Source of the DNA: Candidatus Woesearchaeota archaeon
Lineage (GTDB): Archaea; Nanobdellota; Nanobdellia; Woesearchaeales; UBA10216
DNA length: 64,000 bases
NCBI GenBank assembly: GCA_002688315.1
Contig: NZCN01000015.1
Span: 2,137-66,136, forward strand
Direction: 5' to 3'
Each line of letters begins with the position of its first letter. Within the stretch, counting starts at the first letter, position 1. Both the position numbers and the translations under genes were made by a program. Positions 143-63,926 of this stretch are shown piece by piece. Under the pieces are notes generated by a model. The model was not told the DNA's origin, did no database searches, and worked only from the letters and a program-made list of their open reading frames with translations.

Positions 143-227
143 GGGCCTGTGATCTAGTGGCTATGATGTCGCCTTTACACGGCGAATATCCCCAGTTCGA
201 ATTTTAGCGAAAGTCTGGGCAGGCCCA
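143..227 (+). tRNA. tRNA-Val(UAC) with a 12-nt T-loop intron (202..213, position 59/60)
   Basis: Hand-folded cloverleaf. Acceptor GGGCCTG/CAGGCCC, anticodon stem TCGCC/GGCGA, loop TTTACAC. T-stem CCCAG/CTGGG enclosing TTCGAA + ttttagcgaaag + T. Discriminator A, no encoded CCA. Confidence 0.85.
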
Positions 228-3336: not shown

Positions 3337-3450
3337 GCCGGGATCGCATAATCTGGCATTGCGTAGCCCTGGAAACACGCATAGTCAGGCTATTTCCGTT
3401 GAGGATGTCTGGGTTCAAATTGCGAAAGCATGAAAGTCCCAGTCCCGGCG
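3337..3450 (+). tRNA. tRNA-Ser(GGA), class II, with two introns: anticodon 3375..3386 (37/38) and T-loop 3420..3436 (59/60)
   Basis: Acceptor GCCGGGA/TCCCGGC, G73, anticodon stem TAGCC/GGCTA, loop CTGGAA|A, long variable arm. T-arm CTGGG-TTCAAA|T-CCCAG. The T-loop intron contains a TGC-GAAA-GCA hairpin. Confidence 0.8.
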
Positions 3451-4898: not shown

Positions 4899-5312
4899 AT
4901 GGCCGAAGAAGAAATAAAGCAGAAATACCTTGAACTTCAAATGGGTGCAGAGCAGATGAAGCATATGCAAACGCAAATGCAGGCTCTTGAAGAAAAAAAC
5001 CAGGAAGTTCAAGGAAATATGCAAAGCCTTGAAGATTTGAAAGGGCAAAAAAACTCTGAAATGCTTACTCCGATAGCTGAAGGAATTTTCTTAAAAGCAG
5101 AACTTAAGAATGACGATGAAGTTATTGTCAATGTAGGTGCAGGAGTTTGCGTTAAGAAAACAATTGATGAAGCTAAGAAGATGCTGCAGGGAAGGCAAAA
5201 TGAGGTAAACCAGTATGCCAGGGAAATGCACGGTGAAGTCGAAAAAGTGGCTATTGCAATGAAAAAGCTTGAAGAAGACCTTGGCAACATGCTTAAAAAT
5301 AAAAATGTTTAA
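4899..5312 (+). CDS. pfdA: prefoldin alpha subunit
   Basis: Coiled-coil N and C termini flank a beta-hairpin core (IVNVGAGVCVKKTIDEAKKML). It sits upstream of ftsY, as in many archaea. Confidence 0.85.
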   Translation: MAEEEIKQKYLELQMGAEQMKHMQTQMQALEEKNQEVQGNMQSLEDLKGQKNSEMLTPIAEGIFLKAELKNDDEVIVNVGAGVCVKKTIDEAKKMLQGRQNEVNQYAREMHGEVEKVAIAMKKLEEDLGNMLKNKNV

Positions 5313-6405
5313 GTTTCTCAAAAAGAATTTTAAAAAAGTTGTAACGAATTTCTCTAAGAAAACAGAAGAAGAGCTAGAGAAAGAACCTATTGTTGAAGAA
5401 AAAATAGTGCAGCCTGAAAAAAAAGAAAGCAGTTTTGAATCTGCAGTTGAAGAAATAAAAAAAGATCTGAAAGAAAAATCCGAGGAAATAGACGAAAAGG
5501 AGAAAAGAGATGAAGAAGAAAAGAAAAAAAGCGTTTTTAAAAAGTTGACAGATGTTGTTAAAGCAACTAAGATTTCTGAAGAAAAATTCGACAATTTGTT
5601 TGAAGAACTGGAAATAAGCCTTCTAGAGAACAATGTGGCGCTAGACGTGATTGAGAAAATAAAAAAAGACCTAAAAAGAAGCCTTGTTGACAAGCCATTG
5701 CAACGCGGAAAAGTTCAGGATATGGTAACTGAAAGCCTGAAAGAAAGTATTGAAAGCCTTTTCGAAACTGAAAAAATTGAATTGATTAAAAAAGTTAAGG
5801 AAAAGAAACCGTACATCATTATGTTTGCAGGAATAAACGGCTCAGGAAAAACAACCACCATAGCAAAAGTAGCAAAAATGTTCAAAAATAATAAGCTAAA
5901 ATGTGTAATAGCAGCGTCAGATACTTTCAGAGCAGCAGCCATACAGCAACTCCAGGAACATACTGACAAACTTAAATTAAAGCTCATAAAACACGATTAT
6001 GGCTCAGATCCTGCTGCTGTTGCGTTTGACGCTATAAAATATGCTGAAGCAAAAAAAATGGATGTTGTTCTTATAGACACGGCAGGAAGGCAGCATTCAA
6101 ACAGCAATCTGATAGAAGAAATGAAAAAAATTGTCAGAGTAGCGAAGCCTGACCTAAAGATATTTGTTGGAGAATCCATAACAGGGAATGACTGCATAGA
6201 GCAAGCGAAAAAATTCAATGAAGCTATTGGAATAGACGGCATAATACTATCAAAAGCAGACGTTGATGAGAAAGGCGGAGCTGCAATTTCTGTTTCTTAC
6301 GTAACAAAGAAACCAATTATTTACTTGGGAACAGGGCAAGAATATGAAGACCTGACACCATTTAAGTCTGAGTTGGTTGTTGAAAGTTTAGGATTGGCAA
6401 GTTAA
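5305..6405 (+). CDS. ftsY: signal recognition particle receptor FtsY
   Basis: Acidic N-terminal region, then GINGSGKTTT, DTAGR and SKADVDEKGG. Start re-picked to the ATG at 5305, which overlaps the pfdA stop (ATGTTTAA). Confidence 0.93.
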   Translation: MFKFLKKNFKKVVTNFSKKTEEELEKEPIVEEKIVQPEKKESSFESAVEEIKKDLKEKSEEIDEKEKRDEEEKKKSVFKKLTDVVKATKISEEKFDNLFEELEISLLENNVALDVIEKIKKDLKRSLVDKPLQRGKVQDMVTESLKESIESLFETEKIELIKKVKEKKPYIIMFAGINGSGKTTTIAKVAKMFKNNKLKCVIAASDTFRAAAIQQLQEHTDKLKLKLIKHDYGSDPAAVAFDAIKYAEAKKMDVVLIDTAGRQHSNSNLIEEMKKIVRVAKPDLKIFVGESITGNDCIEQAKKFNEAIGIDGIILSKADVDEKGGAAISVSYVTKKPIIYLGTGQEYEDLTPFKSELVVESLGLAS

Positions 6406-7411: not shown

Positions 7412-7706
7412 AACATAAAGAACTTTATAGAAGTTTAAATGGTTTTTGAATAAAAATTAAAAAAAAGGCGAAAGTGATAAACGCCTTAACTATACCAACA
7501 GTCTAAGAGTTGTAGAGTAGAGCTCATTAATAAACTTTTTGGAAATTAACCCGAAAATATTTTAATTTTGTTGGAAGATTTTCAGGAGCTTTAAATACGC
7601 TTTGAAAATTTCTACAGTAAAACCGTAAGATTTCTAAGTTTTCTGAAAATTTTGCGGAAAATCAGCAGTTGAACTTAATAAGAAGCAATAACAGAAATAG
7701 TAATAC

Positions 7707-24805: not shown

Positions 24806-24823
24806 TAATGAGGGGACGAGGAT
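24806..24823. repeat. 18-nt direct repeat of the tRNA-Leu 3' end (second copy at 24892..24909)
   Basis: taatgaggggacgaggat occurs twice, 86 nt apart. The second copy is the T-stem/acceptor 3' end of tRNA-Leu plus 3 nt of trailer. Confidence 0.6.
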
Positions 24824-24894
24824 CCAGAACAATTTTTTAAGAAAAAATTGAGTAAAAGATGGTTAAGTGGAGCGTAAAGCTCCACGAACCGTAA

Positions 24895-24978
24895 TGAGGG
24901 GACGAGGATTCGAACCCCGGAAGGCACTAAGCCAATGGGTCCTAAACCCATCACGTTTGACCACTTCGTTATCCCCTC
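24895..24978 (-). tRNA. tRNA-Leu(UAG), class II, intron-less
   Basis: Acceptor GAGGGGA/TCCCCTC, anticodon stem ATGGG/CCCAT with loop TTTAGGA, long variable arm, T-arm CGGGG TTCGAAT CCTCG, discriminator A. Confidence 0.9.
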
Positions 24979-27814: not shown

Positions 27815-28097
27815 TTTTTACCTCTGGAAACCCCATCTAACGTGAGATTTCCTTCATTCAGTAAGGAAATCTCTTTTTGGAGTGAAGGGCATGTATAGCC
27901 AAGCTGCGTAAATGATTTTAGGCCGAAAAGCCGACCCTCGAAGAGGGGAAAATCATAATTTAGCAGCTCTGCGTGTGTCTTGAACTCACTTTAACACCAA
28001 TAGAACAATTACTTAATAAGGGCTACGCCTCCATGTCCAGTGGCCAATGGGAAATATTCTTAAAGGAAAGCTTAATCCAAAGGAGTGGAGGTGGGTG

Positions 28098-28329
28098 ATG
28101 AAAAAAAATTTATTACCATTCGAACGATTTGAAAGAGAAGTAATCATGAAAAAAGAAGCGGAAACTAGCAGCAGTTACGGTTGCAACCCTGACGAAAGAA
28201 GCGCTGACGAGCTAATTAATTTTGGCATCATAAACCTTGACAAACCTTCAGGACCAAGCTCACATCAAGTTTCTGCTTATATCAAACAAATTCTTGGCAT
28301 TAAAAAAGCCGGTCACTCTGGGACTCTAG
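28098..28329 (+). CDS. cbf5: tRNA/rRNA pseudouridine synthase Cbf5, exon 1 (ends in the first two bases of the catalytic Asp codon)
   Basis: Contains ...INLDKPSGPSSHQVSAYIKQILGIKKAGHSGTL. Start re-picked to ATG 28098, just after GGAGGTG. The unspliced frame runs into a stop at 28332. Confidence 0.85.
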
Positions 28330-28342
28330 AATAAAAGGAGAC
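28330..28342 (+). other. 13-nt BHB-type mini-intron in cbf5 (aataaaaggagac)
   Basis: Removal restores GTL-D-PKVTG and a 331-codon frame. The flanks form GGGA-CTCT / GGAG-aca-TCCC, with 3-nt bulges on opposite strands of a 4-bp helix. Both cuts fall after the second bulge nucleotide. Confidence 0.7.
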
Positions 28343-29103
28343 ATCCCAAAGTAACAGGAGTTCTGCCAGTAGCTTTAGGCAGAGCCACAAGAATAGTTCA
28401 AGTGCTTCTTACAGCAGGAAAAGAATACGTGTGCGTAATGCAGCTCCACAAAAACGTTGAAGAGGTAAAGCTTAGAAAAGTATGCGAAGAATTTGTTGGA
28501 AAAATAAAACAATTACCTCCTGTAAAAAGCGCTGTGGTAAGAAAACTTAGGGAAAGAACTATCTATTATATAGACATAATTGAAATCAGCGGAAAATACG
28601 TGCTGTTCAGAGTTGGTTGTGAAGCAGGAACATACATAAGAAAACTTGTTTCAGACATTGGAAGCAAAATAGGAGGAGCGCACATGCTTGAGTTAAGAAG
28701 AACCAAAGCAGGACCGTTCAAAGAAGAAGAAATTTTCACCTTACATGATGTCATGGACAGCTACCATTATTATAGAAAAGAATCAAACGAAAAATATTTG
28801 AGAAAAGTCATACTTCCAATAGAAGCAGCAGTTGCGCACCTTCCAAAAGTTTGGATTCTTGACGGAGCAGTTGATAGTGTCTGCCATGGAATGAGCTTAA
28901 AAATGCCTGGCATAAGCAAATTTGAAAACCACATAAGAAAAAAAGATATTGTAGCAATTATGACGCTGAAAAACGAGCTTGTTTGCTACGGGATAGCAAC
29001 TGTCGACTCGAAAAAAATGCAGACAGGAAGAACAGGAGTAACTGTAAAACCAGACGCTGTTTTTATGAAGATAGGAACTTATCCTTCTAAGAAACATGAA
29101 TAA
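28343..29103 (+). CDS. cbf5: Cbf5, exon 2 (TruB core continuation and PUA domain)
   Basis: (D)PKVTGVLPVALGRATRIVQVLLTAGKEYVCVMQLH...AGTYIRKLVSDIG...LPKVWILDGAVDSVCHG... matches archaeal Cbf5 along its whole length. Confidence 0.9.
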
Positions 29104-31049: not shown

Positions 31050-31118
31050 TGTGAGCCAGTCAGGGGACTCGACCCCCTGCTCGGGTTGTCAACTCTTTGC
31101 TCCATCCATTGAGCTACG
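31050..31118 (-). pseudogene. tRNA-like fragment (D-arm and T-arm recognisable, no foldable acceptor or anticodon stem)
   Basis: The minus strand reads TA-GCTC-AATGGATG-GAGC-A-AAGAG-TTGACAA... then AGGGG-GTCGAGT-CCCCT. The 5' AAGAG has no partner, and the 7 nt before TA do not pair with the 3' end. Confidence 0.4.
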
Positions 31119-31150
31119 TTTTCTTTATTTTTCATTTTCTTTGATTTTAA

Positions 31151-31255
31151 TGGCGCCGCGGCTGGGGTTTTCGCCCAGAGATGAGTATCGAACCCAGATG
31201 CCTTCCCAGGCAGAGTGGTATCAACACTCCACGCTTCCAATTGCGCGTCCGCGGC
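31151..31255 (-). tRNA. class-II tRNA (long variable arm, G73, encoded CCA) with anticodon GAU and a 19-nt T-loop intron (31168..31186)
   Basis: Acceptor GCCGCGG/CCGCGGC, D-arm GCGC-AATTGGAA-GCGT. Perfect anticodon stem GAGTG/CACTC with loop TTGATAC (anticodon 31220..31222). Variable arm TGCC-TGGGAA-GGCA, T-arm CTGGG-TTCGAT|C-CCCAG with BHB central helix TTCG/CGAA, then G-CCA. Confidence 0.6.
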
Positions 31256-31295
31256 ATAAAAAGCTTTAAATATCTGTTATTCCCTCTCTTTTGTT

Positions 31296-31325
31296 GGTAT
31301 CAACACTCTGCGCTCCTAATTGCGC
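31296..31325 (-). pseudogene. partial copy of the preceding tRNA (D-arm to anticodon loop only)
   Basis: The minus strand GCGC-AATTAGGA-GCGC-A-GAGTG-TTGATAC-CA parallels 31217..31246. It lacks an acceptor strand and a 3' half. The flank ttcattttcttt is also repeated near 31125. Confidence 0.5.
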
Positions 31326-31494
31326 ATTTTTTCTTTTCATTTTCTTTTAACAGAAGTAGTGGTTTAAATACCCTATCCGTGCATGTCCAGTGCTAATGGT
31401 CAAAAGGGCTGAAAGCCCAATTTTTAGAGGTTTCAGGGCTTGAAAGCTTATTGCGCAAATCTTCCGGATTGTCCAGTGGTTTATTCGGAATTAT

Positions 31495-50677: not shown

Positions 50678-50750
50678 TAGCCCTGCCCGGATTTGAACCA
50701 GGGTTTCCAGGCCCAGAACCTAGCGTGCTTGGCCACTACACTACAGGGCT
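50678..50750 (-). tRNA. tRNA-Gln(CUG), intron-less
   Basis: A1-U72 acceptor AGCCCTG/CAGGGCT, anticodon stem CTAGG/CCTGG with loop TTCTGGG, T-arm CCTGG TTCAAAT CCGGG, discriminator A. Confidence 0.9.
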
Positions 50751-60414: not shown

Positions 60415-63030
60415 TTAAGCAGCCTTTGCTTTTTCCTCTATTCTTTCCATTATTCGTGCATGCATTCTCTTAAGGAATTCTATCTTATCTTCTATCTTGA
60501 GAACATCTGTGTGGGATTCCAAAACTATTTTGAATGCGAATGGGGAAGGCAGGTCTGTCTGGACATTTTTTATCTTTATCTTCCTGTCTTCAATGGCTTT
60601 AAGCAAGTTTTTTGTAGTAGGCATATCCATTAAATCCTCCAAAACTTCACGCCTTGCTTCTTTGAGAATACAAAAATCAGGAGAAACTCTCTTAACAGCA
60701 TTTATTAAAATCATTGAAGAAACTTGTTGTCTACCAACACGTTTTCGCCTTCCTTTATAGTTTCTAAGAATCATCAAAGAACGAGCAGCGCAATGGCGGA
60801 ATCGCCTTTTCAGTATTTCAGTTTTTTCAATAGCATTATTCATTAGCAACTCCATTTTTTCTGATTTAATCAGCTTAAGAGCCGCAGAAACATTGACGTT
60901 TTTTTCATAAGAAACGTAAAAGCCATTATCAGTTATTCCTAGCTCAACATCTTTGCGTTGTGAGCGTGCTATTACAAAAGCAACAGCTCTGCTAAGTGCA
61001 TCATTAACGCGCCTGCCATAAAGAGAATGCACAACAACGTGTTTCCGCCCTCTGTCAGTAAAGTTTTCAATTATTATTTTTTTATCAGTAGGTATTTCTG
61101 CATAAAGATATTGCTCACGCAAATAGTTATAGATTGAACTAGCAGTGTTCTTGTCAACGTAAAGATAATCATTAATGAACTTTAAGACTTCTTTCTTTGT
61201 TTTGTTATGGTTGAATTTTTCCTCCATCAAACGCCTGAATTTGCCAATCTCTAACGCCAAGTCAAAACTTAACGGAAGCATTTCAGAAAACCATGAAGGG
61301 ATAGTAGGAGCCCTGTAAACACTTGCATTAACATAAGCAACCATTCCTTTAGCGTAAAGAAATTCGTATTTATCACCGCCAAGAACAAAAACATCAGTTT
61401 TTCTTAATCGTTCAAGGAACGACTCATCAATCTTCCCTACAACATGATCTGTACCTGCAATCTTTACAGAAACAAAAGTTTCATCAGGAATTGTGCCTAT
61501 ATTAGTCATGTAAATAACACGGCTCATGCGACCTTTTCTGCCAATTAGTCCTGTTTCTTCATCAACCCAAATTTTTGCATAGATATGCCGGTCTTCAAGA
61601 GAAATGTGCTTGCCGCTCAGGTAATCCAAAACTTCATTGAAATCTTTTAATGTTAAGTCTTTATAGCAGTAACTTTTTTTAATCACATTGTATAAGTCAG
61701 TCTTGTGAACTTTAGAAGCTATTGCAATTCCATAAATTTGTTGAGCTAAAACATCCAAAGCATTTTCTGGTATATGAATACGATCAATCTTTTTTTCAAT
61801 AGCAGATTTCAAAAGAACAGAGCATTCAATCATATCATCCCTATCAAGAACAATAATCCTGCCTTTTGAAACAGAATGTAATTTGTGACCGCTTCTTCCA
61901 ATACGCTGTAAAGCGCGCGCAACAGATTTAGGACTGCCTAGAAGAATCACTAAATCAATATAGCCAATATCAATGCCCAGTTCAAGGCTTGTAGAGCTTA
62001 CAACAACCTTTAATTTTCCTTCTCTTAGCCTCTTTTCAATACTATGACGATATTCTTTTGAAAGAGAACCATGATGAGCGCCGATAGTAGGATCATCAGA
62101 AGCGTAACGTTTTGGAAATTTTTCTTTCAAATGGTGTATAACACGCTCAGTAGCAGCTCTGGTATTTGTGAAAATAAGAGTTGTTTTATGAGTTTGGATT
62201 AAATCATCAATCAAAGAATACATTGAATCCTGCATTTTACCATGCTCAACATTAATCAAATCAGGAACAGGAGACAAAACTTTCAAATCCGTTTTCTTAA
62301 CAAACTGAACATTGCAAATCTTGCAGTTTCTTGGCACTTCATTTTCATTTCCAACAAGAAAATGTGCAATTTTATCCAAAGGCGCTATGGTTGCTGACAA
62401 ACCAATTCTAGTCATTGCAGGAGAAAGATGTTGAAGACGCTCCAAGCTAAGAGAAAGATGCACTCCACGTTTGTTTTCTGCCAAAGCATGCACTTCATCA
62501 ACAATACACCATTCTACTGCCTGAAGCAAATCTATGAAACGATAACTGCTCAGAACAATTGCAAGACTTTCAGGAGTTGTTATGAGAATGTGTGGAGGTT
62601 TTTTCAGCATCTTTGATTTTTCAGAAGCTGACGTATCACCAGTTCTAACAGCAACTCTGATTCCAAGTTTTTTGCCAGCTATTTTTTCCATTTCTTTCAA
62701 AGGTTCAATCAAGTTGAGTTGCACATCGTTGCTGAGCGCTTTCAAAGGCGAGATATATATACAATAAACTTTATCTTCAAGTATGTCGCTTTCTGAAGCA
62801 TTTATAAGCTCATTAAGAATTGAAAGAAATCCAGTAAGAGTTTTTGTTGCACCAGTAGGAGCAGAAACTAAAATATTATTTCTGCTGTGAATCTCCATAA
62901 CTCCAAATAATTGAGGAAGACTAAATTCTTTAAACTTAGAGAAAAACCATTTTTTAATAAGAGGGTTTAATATGTTGCGCAATTCTTGCGGTTTATTAGA
63001 ATTTAATTTGTATTCTATCATCACTACCAA
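60415..63030 (-). CDS. lhr: Lhr-type large DEAD/DEAH-box helicase
   Basis: Contains SAPTGATKTL, DEVH, SAT and QRIGRSGH, followed by the Lhr-specific winged-helix / domain 4 region (DEAD_assoc-like). Confidence 0.92.
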   Translation of the reverse strand: MVVMIEYKLNSNKPQELRNILNPLIKKWFFSKFKEFSLPQLFGVMEIHSRNNILVSAPTGATKTLTGFLSILNELINASESDILEDKVYCIYISPLKALSNDVQLNLIEPLKEMEKIAGKKLGIRVAVRTGDTSASEKSKMLKKPPHILITTPESLAIVLSSYRFIDLLQAVEWCIVDEVHALAENKRGVHLSLSLERLQHLSPAMTRIGLSATIAPLDKIAHFLVGNENEVPRNCKICNVQFVKKTDLKVLSPVPDLINVEHGKMQDSMYSLIDDLIQTHKTTLIFTNTRAATERVIHHLKEKFPKRYASDDPTIGAHHGSLSKEYRHSIEKRLREGKLKVVVSSTSLELGIDIGYIDLVILLGSPKSVARALQRIGRSGHKLHSVSKGRIIVLDRDDMIECSVLLKSAIEKKIDRIHIPENALDVLAQQIYGIAIASKVHKTDLYNVIKKSYCYKDLTLKDFNEVLDYLSGKHISLEDRHIYAKIWVDEETGLIGRKGRMSRVIYMTNIGTIPDETFVSVKIAGTDHVVGKIDESFLERLRKTDVFVLGGDKYEFLYAKGMVAYVNASVYRAPTIPSWFSEMLPLSFDLALEIGKFRRLMEEKFNHNKTKKEVLKFINDYLYVDKNTASSIYNYLREQYLYAEIPTDKKIIIENFTDRGRKHVVVHSLYGRRVNDALSRAVAFVIARSQRKDVELGITDNGFYVSYEKNVNVSAALKLIKSEKMELLMNNAIEKTEILKRRFRHCAARSLMILRNYKGRRKRVGRQQVSSMILINAVKRVSPDFCILKEARREVLEDLMDMPTTKNLLKAIEDRKIKIKNVQTDLPSPFAFKIVLESHTDVLKIEDKIEFLKRMHARIMERIEEKAKAA

Positions 63031-63926
63031 CCCAGCTTATAAGTGTTAACTAATTTGTACATTTTCCTCTTAATTGTGAAACCAATCATGTCTTTAAATA
63101 ACTTGAGATTCTCTTTTCGATTAATATATAATTTCGGATATTTTTTCTGTTGAAACTTATTCTCTATGCCTAGTTTACTAAGCAGTTTAGATACGTCAAT
63201 CAACCCTTTGCGACTACCTGAAAGAATCATTACATAATACTTGCTAACCCAACCATCACTATCGTATAGCCCTTTCAAAAAAGTAGAAATTATTTTCTTG
63301 TTATTTGAATTTAGAATTTCTTGTGGTACGCGCCAAGTCATAGTTCTAAAAGTTCCGTAGCGTAACAAATCTTTTGAAAGCAACATTGCAGAAACTTTGA
63401 ATAAAAAAGTGTTCCTATTAGTCTTGTAAACATAAATGTATTTAATCCCGTACACAGCTTCCATACATCGTGTGAATTCTTTAATAAATTCTTCATCCTT
63501 TCTTATTTCGAGTGCGATAACTTTATTGTTAATGTAACCATCTCCAGCAAGGACCCCTAAGATATATGCTTTTTCTAAAGTCAAATTTTTATATTTTTTC
63601 AGAGGCCTTTTTAATTTTAAATTAGCTAATTCTTTCTTAATTTGCGGAGTGTTCATGGATTCTTTATGCGTTCTTACTTTAATTCCATAGGATCGAAGCC
63701 AGTTTATAACTATAATCGTAGAAACTTTAGATTTAAGACCGATATCACTTGCGCTTAGTTTTTGCTTTACGTAAAGATCGTACAAAGTCTTCTTTTCTAA
63801 TTTAGGTTTAGTTTTAAATTGCGTTCTTTCTTGATTATAAGGAATATTGTGATGATGTATCCAGCCAGAAATAGTTGCTTCAGAAATGGTTATTCCAAAC
63901 TTTTTATTAATTTCTTTTCTTATCAA
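63024..63926 (-). CDS. free-standing double-motif LAGLIDADG endonuclease-like protein with N-terminal HTH region
   Basis: The motifs are YILGVLAGDGY and FLKGLYDSDGW, about 95 aa apart. Its stop overlaps the lhr start by 7 nt. The TTG start in the track is uncertain, and the N terminus may lie near the window edge. Confidence 0.8.
   Translation of the reverse strand: MIRKEINKKFGITISEATISGWIHHHNIPYNQERTQFKTKPKLEKKTLYDLYVKQKLSASDIGLKSKVSTIIVINWLRSYGIKVRTHKESMNTPQIKKELANLKLKRPLKKYKNLTLEKAYILGVLAGDGYINNKVIALEIRKDEEFIKEFTRCMEAVYGIKYIYVYKTNRNTFLFKVSAMLLSKDLLRYGTFRTMTWRVPQEILNSNNKKIISTFLKGLYDSDGWVSKYYVMILSGSRKGLIDVSKLLSKLGIENKFQQKKYPKLYINRKENLKLFKDMIGFTIKRKMYKLVNTYKLGW

Follow-up and report, generated by a model that had tools for sequence, protein, structure and literature searches.

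Transfer RNAs in which the anticodon is at odds with the rest of the molecule occur naturally in several lineages. In yeasts of the CTG clade, a class II tRNA-Ser(CAG) of serine identity reads a leucine codon and bears a Leu-like G37 by loop features of the A35/A36 type. The bacterial allo-tRNAs are class II tRNAs with G73 or U73 and a long variable arm that are predicted or shown to accept serine; they are accessory and patchily distributed, and most carry non-serine anticodons, UAU (Ile) being among the commonest (Mukai et al. 2017, PMC5389517). The nev-tRNAs of nematodes are likewise class II molecules whose anticodon, notably UAU, disagrees with the body; it is the body that decides how they are charged, isoleucyl-tRNA synthetase (IleRS) playing no part, and they are weakly expressed and coexist with class I tRNA-Ile (Hamashima et al. 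2012, PMC3333845). Here, we describe a class II tRNA gene with a GAU anticodon, the GAU gene, from a Candidatus Woesearchaeota archaeon (assembly GCA_002688315.1), found in a 64,000-nucleotide stretch of contig NZCN01000015.1 that was analysed as a whole and is called the window below. An earlier note, made from the letters of this stretch alone, had called it a member of an unexplained tRNA class, and we too found no description of archaeal tRNAs of such a kind in the searchable literature.

The two documented families have features of their own. Allo-tRNAs are bacterial, combine an 8/4 or 9/3 acceptor/T arrangement with a long, Sec-like D stem and a tetraloop, and use 35 anticodons (PMC5389517), whereas nev-tRNAs are eukaryotic derivatives of tRNA-Leu that carry A73 in all 115 genes and accept leucine (PMC3333845). 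Unlike the former, the archaeal GAU tRNA is arranged 7/5, closes an 8-nt D loop with a stem of 4 bp, and has A8 and a bulge-helix-bulge (BHB) intron, and the group to which it belongs uses NAN anticodons only; unlike the latter, the archaeal group always has G73 and a Ser-like acceptor end. In the CTG-clade yeasts a codon is reassigned or ambiguous genome-wide, whereas here AUH, UUA and UUG are standard and the genes dispensable. Non-canonical BHB introns offer a further comparison: in the cases of intron transposition in Thermoproteales and of the Caldiarchaeum tRNA-Thr locus (PMC3293823), as here, a 59/60 hBHBh' intron is common in sequence to different tRNA genes and 5' partial tRNA copies lie upstream of the intact gene, but those cases concern canonical tRNAs of matching identity. 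The GAU locus has no recombinase gene. By analogy, allo-tRNAs and nev-tRNAs would be the closest in function, while the GAU gene fails the defining features of both.

Results

An intact class II tRNA gene with a GAU anticodon

The gene is composed of the following parts.

31151..31255, minus strand: the main finding, a GAU class II tRNA gene that has A8 and G73 and encodes CCA
31187..31255, minus strand: 5' exon (tRNA positions 1-59) with D arm, anticodon arm and variable-arm hairpin
31222..31220, minus strand: GAU anticodon (G34 at 31222, A35 at 31221, U36 at 31220)
31212..31198, minus strand: variable-arm hairpin
31186..31168, minus strand: 19-nt BHB intron at 59/60, ACTCATCTCTGGGCGAAAA
31151..31167, minus strand: 3' exon with position 60, the 3' strands of T stem and acceptor stem, G73 and CCA

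Along the minus strand the first half reads GCCGCGG-AC-GCGC-AATTGGAA-GCGT-G-GAGTG-TTGATAC-CACTC and the second TGCCTGGGAAGGCA-T-CTGGG-TTCGAT, then the intron, then C-CCCAG-CCGCGGC-G-CCA. The acceptor stem (GCCGCGG/CCGCGGC) is followed by A8 and C9, a 4-bp D stem (GCGC/GCGU, with G10.U25) around the 8-nt D loop AAUUGGAA, and G26. The anticodon stem GAGUG/CACUC closes the loop UUGAUAC, in which GAU and A37 are of the tRNA-Ile(GAU) type. The variable arm, UGCCU-GGGA-AGGCA plus U, is 15 nt long with a GGGA loop, and a 5-bp T stem (CUGGG/CCCAG) on the 7-bp acceptor stem completes a 7/5 cloverleaf. The universal tertiary nucleotides A14, G18, G19, A21, U33, U54, U55, C56 and A58, the pair G53-C61 and A15/U48 are all kept; the sole departure from the norm is A8 in place of U8.

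Neither ARAGORN nor the Rfam tRNA model called the unspliced gene. Spliced in silico, it is an 86-nt class II tRNA(GAU) to ARAGORN at default settings, and the minimum free energy (MFE) structure of the spliced RNA is a class II cloverleaf. The clean minus-strand fold, class II body and GAU/A37 loop of the earlier note are thereby reproduced; only its variable-arm stem of 4 bp needs correction, to 5 bp (UGCCU/AGGCA). The 59/60 intron is also as well formed as it had stated, with a full hBHBh' motif made up of the outer helix CUGGG/CCCAG, the 4-bp UUCG/CGAA helix, the bulges AU|A and AA|C and a short inner helix, and this fold is the MFE structure of the isolated T-arm stretch. Against shuffled sequences, precursor folding has a z-score of -4.9. 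The GAU gene is intact and processable. It alone among the window tRNAs encodes CCA, as first noticed; the Val, Gly, Ser, UAU, Leu and Gln genes do not.

Two other constructions of the gene were ruled out. One, named in the earlier note, was that the variable arm is excised as a second intron to leave a class I tRNA-Ile; because the arm is a perfect 5-bp hairpin without 3-nt bulges, it is not a BHB intron. The other was a split or permuted tRNA with flanking fragments as its halves; these fragments have neither a 5' acceptor strand nor complementary leaders.

The unspliced precursor has an MFE of -53.9 kcal/mol, compared with -42.7 kcal/mol for the cloverleaf with its BHB motif. In the MFE fold the 5' strand and loop of the anticodon arm (GAGUGUUGA) pair with the T loop and the start of the intron (UCGAUACUC) over 9 bp in total. 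The counterpart of this pairing in a related locus (L064, below) is weaker, at 5 bp, and the alternative pairing may be due to chance or be a precursor-specific fold.

Determinants of serine identity

In Bacteria, Archaea and Eukarya the strong determinants of seryl-tRNA synthetase (SerRS) are G73 and a large variable arm, the anticodon being irrelevant; archaeal tRNA-Leu needs A73, and an A73-to-G73 change turns leucine identity into serine identity (PMC9976931). The GAU tRNA presents G73 and the long variable arm together with an anticodon that is not one of serine (NGA or GCU); of the minor or methanogen-type determinants G1-C72 and G30-C40 it has the first, with U30-A40 in place of the second. 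The earlier description of a Ser-like body with a non-Ser anticodon stands. Because G73 and the long arm are present and SerRS ignores the anticodon, this tRNA, which pairs with AUU/AUC, is nevertheless predicted to receive serine. With G73 and a 15-nt arm it has neither the A73 nor the class I (4-5 nt) variable loop of tRNA-Ile, nor does it have the A73 of archaeal tRNA-Leu, which the genome's own tRNA-Leu(UAG) carries. Our preferred reading, which we hold tentatively and with somewhat less than even confidence, is that the gene encodes an accessory tRNA of serine identity, probably charged by SerRS whatever its anticodon.

The body was compared with the other tRNA genes of the window, which are as follows.

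143-227, plus strand: tRNA-Val(UAC) with a 12-nt 59/60 intron
233-303: tRNA-Gly(GCC)
3337..3450, plus strand: canonical tRNA-Ser(GGA), the reference Ser body of the genome, with introns at 37/38 (12 nt) and 59/60 (17 nt)
7707..7793, plus strand: class II UAU tRNA with G73, G37 and U8 and without intron, of the same kind as the GAU tRNA
24895-24978: tRNA-Leu(UAG)
31062-31116: tRNA-Val-like fragment
50678-50750: tRNA-Gln(CUG)

In tRNA-Ser(GGA) the acceptor stem GCCGGGA/TCCCGGC is followed by G73, and the T stem is CUGGG/CCCAG. The GAU tRNA has the same T stem and an acceptor strand that likewise starts with GCCG, and the acceptor of the UAU tRNA at 7707 (GTCGGGA/TCCCGGC) is nearly that of tRNA-Ser(GGA). 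Both mismatched tRNAs are nearer to Ser(GGA) than to Leu(UAG), with 58 versus 53 identities. Among the canonical tRNAs, those for Val, Gly, Leu and Gln carry U8 and A73 on different acceptor stems. The D-loop core that had been reported as common to the GAU and 7707 tRNAs is indeed so (2 matches, 0 expected). A single N35-to-A step leads from a serine anticodon to one of this kind (GCU to GAU, GGA to GAA, UGA to UAA, CGA to CAA). Since 59/60 BHB introns also occur in tRNA-Ser(GGA) and tRNA-Val(UAC), they are common in this lineage. These two genes, for their part, were not called by ARAGORN at default settings or by Rfam at the gathering threshold.

When the window's enolase is aligned with that of Methanocaldococcus jannaschii (PDB 2pa6), 30 of its 31 ATT/ATC/ATA codons align with I, V or L and none stands opposite Ser; TTA and TTG are opposite Leu. 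A reassignment of AUH codons is ruled out by this alignment: by this comparison AUU, AUC and AUA still mean isoleucine and the code is standard. Therefore the GAU tRNA, if serylated, cannot be the main decoder of these codons.

A conserved slot with a changing tRNA

Syntenic loci in relatives were reached through the flanking proteins (homologs of the transketolase and the hydrolase). Gene order around the locus is kept, running from the S-layer protein through S19e, L31e, Cbf5, DUF357, the hydrolase and an open reading frame (ORF) of about 80 codons to the tRNA cluster, a variable gene and transketolase; the variable gene encodes a TPR protein or RelA/SpoT. The slot itself is occupied as follows.

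L064 (GCA_016185705.1): class II CAC tRNA with G73, then class II GAU tRNA with A8 and G73
L063: class II GAA tRNA with G73 and class II UAA tRNA with G73
L068/69: class I GAU tRNA with U73
L052 (1.14-Mb contig): class I CGC tRNA with U73
L066/67: stubs only

Across loci, the acceptor stem of every slot tRNA consists of G and C alone (GCCGGCG, GCCGCGG or GCCGGGG), and all contain a 59/60 intron, which among the second-position tRNAs (window, L052, L068, L064, L063) is homologous in sequence (...GGGCG[A/C]AAA). The GAU gene of L064 is the ortholog of the window gene, with all seven positions of the loop UUGAUAC identical, A8, G73 and a 15-nt variable arm. The two differ by at least six double compensatory changes, at acceptor positions 5 and 6, at 29-41 and 30-40 of the anticodon stem, at 49-65 and 50-64 of the T stem, and in the variable-arm stem. 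Given these changes together with the identical loop, structure and loop are under purifying selection in the clade of the window and L064. The loop is also identical in the class I version at L068. The encoded CCA, by comparison, is not kept in relatives, which have GCA, GCG or UCA instead.

In relatives the slot and its gene order are conserved, the tRNA in it differs or is lost, and the GAU gene is dispensable across the wider group. For an unusual lineage of tRNA-Ile, a candidate of the earlier note, a dispensable gene with a drifting anticodon makes an unlikely case. The idea that the GAU and 7707 UAU tRNAs form a designed pair covering the isoleucine box is not supported. An ortholog of the 7707 tRNA in L072 (GCA_016184345.1), in a slot between H+-PPase and a DEAD helicase, keeps the anticodon stem CTCGT/ACGAG and essentially the same acceptor stem, has A8 as well as G73, contains a 59/60 intron and shows covariation in the variable arm, yet its anticodon is GAA; the corresponding slot holds no tRNA in L070 (from the L064 genome), L071 or L073. 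The 7707 loop itself, CUUAUGA, is one base from the Leu-type CUUAAGA, with G37 kept. Because the slot anticodons vary (GAU, UAA, CGC or nothing at the GAU slot) and the 7707 ortholog reads GAA or is absent, the pair is incidental, and the constant feature of the group described below is not isoleucine-box coverage but A35.

The class I tRNAs of L068 (GAU) and L052 (CGC) have G1-C72, C2-G71, C3-G70 and U73, the acceptor set reported for archaeal tRNA-Thr, and their anticodons are one step from GGU and CGU. Tentatively, these U73 variants may be a parallel case involving another synthetase that is dominated by the acceptor end.

A group of class II, G73 tRNAs in DPANN archaea

The species genomes of GTDB were scanned with a pattern anchored on the D loop, an NAU anticodon and the T loop, and a metagenome scan left the anticodon free; the window's own species is not in the genome or metagenome collections scanned by DNA pattern. 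Besides about 12 chance matches (about 23 expected, by our own estimate) and a small number of class I tRNAs, the GTDB scan returned nine NAU tRNAs of class II, five of them from Nano-, Pace- and Woesearchaeota. The metagenome scan returned the same DPANN type with UAA (6 loci), CAA and AAU. What counts as evidence is limited to features outside the pattern. These are A8, G73 and the variable arm, plus A35 for genes that came from the free scan or from synteny.

The GTDB scan also matched bacterial class II UAU tRNAs with long variable arms in Acidobacteria (L007, L025), Brachyspira (L013) and Methylococcus (L023). Those of Acidobacteria may be allo-tRNAs of Mukai et al.

Seventeen class II, G73 tRNAs were collected from marine and groundwater DPANN genomes, and the GAU gene is no isolated accident, in keeping with the earlier note. 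Pair statistics were computed on a hand-segmented alignment. All helices are intact in the seventeen, and the variable-arm hairpins covary. G1-C72, G73 and A35 are invariant (17/17), G30-C40 is found in 14/17, and A8 in 13/17, including members that were not selected for it. The anticodons are GAU, UAU, AAU, CAU, UAA, CAA, CAC and GAA, all of the form NAN and reading NUN (hydrophobic) codons. A covariance model of relatives built without the window sequence ranked the GAU gene first in the window at 63.4 bits (E about 1e-11), followed by the 7707 tRNA at 56.7 bits; Ser, Leu and Gly scored 41, 39 and 38. These sequences are good evidence that the GAU gene belongs to a previously undescribed, selected yet dispensable group of mismatched class II tRNAs whose hosts are DPANN archaea. 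Its hallmarks are the DPANN host, the 7/5 architecture, A8, the 59/60 BHB intron, NAN-only anticodons, and rapid anticodon switching between orthologs.

The groundwater loci are as follows.

L006, ~4985-5095: groundwater DPANN tRNA
L017, ~2270-2372: groundwater DPANN tRNA
L018, ~5490-5590: groundwater DPANN tRNA
L012, L014, L029, L034, L039, L040, L042, L046 and L050: further groundwater tRNA loci

Groundwater members have A8, G73 and a 14-nt variable arm and lie in chromosomal contexts (with ThrRS, gyrase and transketolase as neighbours). Those with UAA, CAA, AAU and CAU lie inside a leader-trailer helix that covaries; it sets in 2-4 nt ahead of G1 and, on the 3' side, immediately behind G73, and its versions are GCAGAG/CTCTGC, ACAGAGC/GCTCTGT, GCTGGTGG/CCGCTGGC and GCGGGGC/GTCCTGC. 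Some 70-100 nt upstream, just before a TATA box, the groundwater loci carry a 'D box' CAATTGGAAG and a copy of their own variable-arm hairpin. A gene for PF18894 ('putative phage metallopeptidase') follows the UAA-type tRNA within about 40 nt in L029, L034, L039, L040 and L050, and threonyl-tRNA synthetase is encoded immediately upstream of the class II tRNA in L012 and L046.

The composition of the group bears on what its members are charged with. The GAU tRNA could be a genuine isoleucine isoacceptor, its IleRS reading GAU and A37 and tolerating G73, A8 and the extra arm, and the family would then be one generic body on which the anticodon alone decides identity (Ile, Val, Phe, Leu, Met). 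The invariant A35 fits, since every anticodon is one for an amino acid with a synthetase that reads A35 (Ile, Val, Met, Phe; PMC9976931, Table 1); so do the A37 found next to U36 where the anticodon is GAU, AAU or CAU, in line with t6A, the loop UUGAUAC shared by the window, L064 and the class I tRNA of L068, and the fact that AUH codons do mean isoleucine. Yet A73, the universal discriminator of tRNAs for Ile, Val, Leu, Phe and Met, never occurs in the group, close relatives have lost the gene or changed its anticodon, and position 37 is not co-adapted in 4/17 members (UAU with G37; GAA with A37, not G37). Moreover, the IleRS of C. elegans leaves a class II tRNA(UAU) uncharged (PMC3333845), and a further DPANN contig, L046, has a normal class I tRNA-Ile(UAU) with A73. 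We consider an isoleucine isoacceptor unlikely.

Charging with leucine would require a LeuRS that reads the long arm and, in this lineage, tolerates G73; it would place leucine at Ile, Val, Phe and Met codons, a conservative exchange in the manner of nev-tRNAs. LeuRS enzymes, archaeal and all others studied, need A73, and G73 converts Leu to Ser (PMC9976931); the tRNA-Leu(UAG) of this genome and its orthologs have A73 and U8, and the nev-tRNAs that supply the precedent have A73 throughout (PMC3333845). These points make leucine charging improbable, even though the restriction to A35 fits a tolerated substitution of leucine for other hydrophobic residues, the unbiased metagenome scan returned UAA and CAA more often than any other anticodon, and the UAA members have the Leu-type loop CUUAAGA with G37.

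Partial tRNA copies and the promoter of the cluster

Three elements accompany the GAU gene.

31295..31347, minus strand: unit A, an A-rich leader (AAAGAAAATGAAAAGAAAAAAT) and, in the same sense as the gene, a partial copy of its D arm and 5' anticodon arm
31055..31142, minus strand: unit C, the same A-rich leader and a 5'-truncated tRNA-Val(GAC)-like remnant (Rfam tRNA, 18 bits, partial)
31361..31373, minus strand: P1, a conserved TATA-type sequence GGGTATTTAAAC with a putative promoter role

The copy in unit A (31295-31325, minus strand) is identical to the GAU tRNA at 27 of 31 positions, including all of GAGTGTTGATACCA, and scores 42 against a shuffle maximum of 26. It sits where relatives have the first tRNA of the cluster and is probably within the pre-tRNA leader. 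Unit C has recognisable D and T arms, a broken anticodon arm and a 3' acceptor strand, and is better explained as a recombinant or decayed tRNA-Val than as a tRNA half. P1 is likely the promoter of unit A and the GAU tRNA: a TATA-like motif at -15 is too close to serve, those of the canonical window tRNAs lying at about -30. In L063 and L064 it stands at the canonical distance, about -33, from the first tRNA, and the promoter sequence GGGTATTTAA(A/G)C precedes the tRNA cluster at all syntenic loci.

P1 is the end of a conserved non-coding element of about 118 nt upstream of the cluster (31361-31478, minus strand), which is also present in L052, L063, L064, L066 and L068. It consists of two CACTGGAC repeats about 95 nt apart, a TTGCGCAA palindrome and two small hairpins (GCTTTCAAGC; GGGCTTTCAGCCC, then a T run), followed by the promoter. 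Relatives of the RelA type have ATTTTGCGC motifs, 4-5 times, farther upstream.

Partial same-sense copies adjoin three of the five window tRNAs tested; a variable-arm copy of the UAU tRNA lies at 7477-7502 (plus strand), about 200 nt upstream of 7707, and a 3'-end copy of tRNA-Leu(UAG) at 24809-24830 (minus strand), about 65 nt downstream. They also occur at all five groundwater loci examined (L006, L012, L014, L017, L018). In relatives the anticodon-arm segment of the homologous unit follows each one's own tRNA. At L052 (~7870-8260, minus strand) a filled site (unit, tRNA, TGGAGTTGGAATAA) lies beside an empty one (unit, TGGAGTTGAAATAA), and L066 (5316-5640, plus strand) has tRNA stubs whose interior is deleted (GCC|CCCGCCGCGGC). 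Such remains suggest that duplications and deletions have recurred here, their break points lying close to tRNA positions 3/4 and 60/61. The locus is recombinationally active, and a tRNA cluster undergoing duplication, gene conversion and deletion is the simplest reading of the partial copies, which may also have a regulatory role; a footprint of this kind has been described for the Caldiarchaeum tRNA-Thr locus (PMC3293823). The upstream copies, with their MKRK... starts, were not taken to encode a leader peptide or other small ORF, as neither its frame relative to the tRNA nor the protein-level sequence between the boxes is conserved. At four of the five groundwater GTDB loci ORFs pass through the tRNA from an ATG with a Shine-Dalgarno sequence, some with ATGA overlaps to their neighbours. 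No C/D boxes of a guide RNA were seen by eye opposite the upstream copy.

An active locus of this kind could also yield the GAU gene as a non-functional by-product, a chimera or an anticodon-mutated duplicate awaiting decay at a tRNA hot spot. The abundance of partial copies (units A and C, and those beside the other window tRNAs), the filled and empty sites of L052 and the deleted stubs of L066 are in line with this, as are the absence or replacement of the tRNA and the loss of the encoded CCA in relatives, and a mobile-element model for such 5' fragments exists (PMC3293823). A decaying gene is nevertheless improbable in view of the perfect cloverleaf and BHB motif, the compensatory changes and unaltered anticodon loop relative to the L064 ortholog, and the retention of every helix, A35 and G73 in all seventeen members.

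A role outside decoding is in turn rather improbable. The tRNA would supply aminoacyl groups to a tRNA-dependent transferase, or act in regulation or as a decoy by means of an anticodon loop with A35. The body is kept while positions 34 and 36 drift, A8 recurs, the groundwater leader-trailer helix would mask the 3' end, and partial upstream tRNA copies are present at every locus. However, no gene for a tRNA-dependent transferase lies in the window or in the related loci inspected, the window has none of the Fem-, MprF- or cyclodipeptide-synthase-like genes that the earlier note had suggested looking for, the elements of ribosomal function (U33, T loop, 7/5 arrangement, CCA) are all there, and the GAU tRNA itself is without the leader-trailer helix.

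Chromosomal context and other features of the window

The window encodes SRP54, FtsY, PRPP synthetase, PEP synthase, enolase, eIF2-alpha, MetRS and Cbf5, as well as S19e, L31e, an S-layer protein and H+-PPase. The contig is core chromosome of a marine Woesearchaeota (DPANN) metagenome-assembled genome and not a mobile element. Besides Tara Oceans ERZ2773064 scaffold_280, three further assemblies that reach the tRNA locus are 100% identical there, and the transketolase matches an NCBI protein of 'Candidatus Woesearchaeota archaeon' with full identity. The notion of mobile-element cargo does not agree with these neighbours, nor was a homolog of the tRNA found on viral contigs in two IMG/VR scans, a limited negative in that only exact patterns were used. 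A viral origin was rejected; one scan gave 0 matches and the other 4, all in GC-rich coding DNA.

Two features elsewhere in the window concern introns and homing elements. The cbf5 gene (28047-29103, plus strand) is broken by 13 nt, AATAAAAGGAGAC, at 28330-28342 inside the catalytic GTLD codons, and gene callers cut it into two. Without these 13 nt it reads through as one ORF of 348 aa, which is colinear with Cbf5 from five relatives whose intact genes have no insert. The flanks form a relaxed bulge-helix-bulge (GGGA/UCCC, bulge ACA, CUCU/GGAG, bulge AGA), and the insert resembles the BHB pre-mRNA intron known in cbf5 of Crenarchaeota, in this instance from a DPANN genome. An ORF with a LAGLIDADG homing-endonuclease domain (63024-63926, minus strand) lies directly upstream of, and overlaps, an Lhr-type helicase gene (60415-63030); it may be a free-standing or an intein-derived endonuclease.

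Discussion

The properties of the GAU gene suggest a route from gene to product. Transcription would start from P1, about 110 nt upstream, and run through unit A into the tRNA; the splicing endonuclease, whose BHB motif is seen and whose cleavage is predicted, would remove the 59/60 intron and the exons would be joined. The mature product would be the 86-nt tRNA with CCA, and SerRS would charge it with serine, as predicted from G73 and the variable arm. The outcome could be rare Ile-to-Ser decoding in competition with canonical tRNA-Ile, or an A35-dependent use of Ser-tRNA. Experience with nev-tRNA-Ile(UAU) speaks for charging that is driven by the body. As part of this serine-identity reading, and with the same tentativeness, the gene may be the archaeal counterpart of allo-tRNAs and nev-tRNAs.

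Several points weigh against serine identity. The chief weakness is that SerRS recognition does not predict the invariance of A35. Serine at hydrophobic codons should be harmful, and A35 is better explained by a hydrophobic amino acid, cognate or leucine. The Ile and Leu alternatives are kept alive because serine identity does not account for the selective reason for A35. The GAU tRNA has U30-A40 and not the minor determinant G30-C40, the CUUAAGA loop of the UAA members with its G37 is Leu-like, and A8 is unusual and might affect folding or recognition. The likeness of the groundwater D loops to that of the GAU tRNA is an effect of ascertainment, because the search pattern fixed the D loop (and one scan NAU as well). 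Finally, a canonical tRNA-Ile(GAU) elsewhere in the genome is inferred from the dispensability of the GAU gene, not seen.

Natural tRNAs whose body and anticodon are mismatched are raw material for genetic-code change and for deliberate mistranslation; they have been documented in Bacteria (allo-tRNAs) and nematodes (nev-tRNAs), and we found no report from Archaea. With at least 17 sequences, drawn from DPANN of marine waters and groundwater, the present group is concrete enough to be tested; in it, orthologs switch anticodon (UAU to GAA, GAU to UAA) while their stems covary, and one of its loci also holds mismatched class I variants with U73. For annotation, it means that standard finders miss such genes through the 59/60 intron or wrongly label them tRNA-Ile. 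That DPANN archaea keep, under selection, a dedicated set of serine-identity tRNAs (G73, long variable arm, often A8) that read only NUN codons is a doubtful but consequential proposal. They would serve either a programmed hydrophobic-to-Ser ambiguity, low in level and lineage-wide, which would give these reduced-genome symbionts a statistical proteome, or a new identity system in which a so far unrecognised synthetase charges, or a so far unrecognised enzyme uses, class II tRNAs with A35. If these tRNAs are charged by anticodon, the identity rules of IleRS, ValRS and PheRS (A73, class I body) would need revision in this lineage. If instead they are serylated and reach the ribosome, archaeal symbionts with reduced genomes would tolerate or exploit Ile/Leu/Val/Phe-to-Ser ambiguity.

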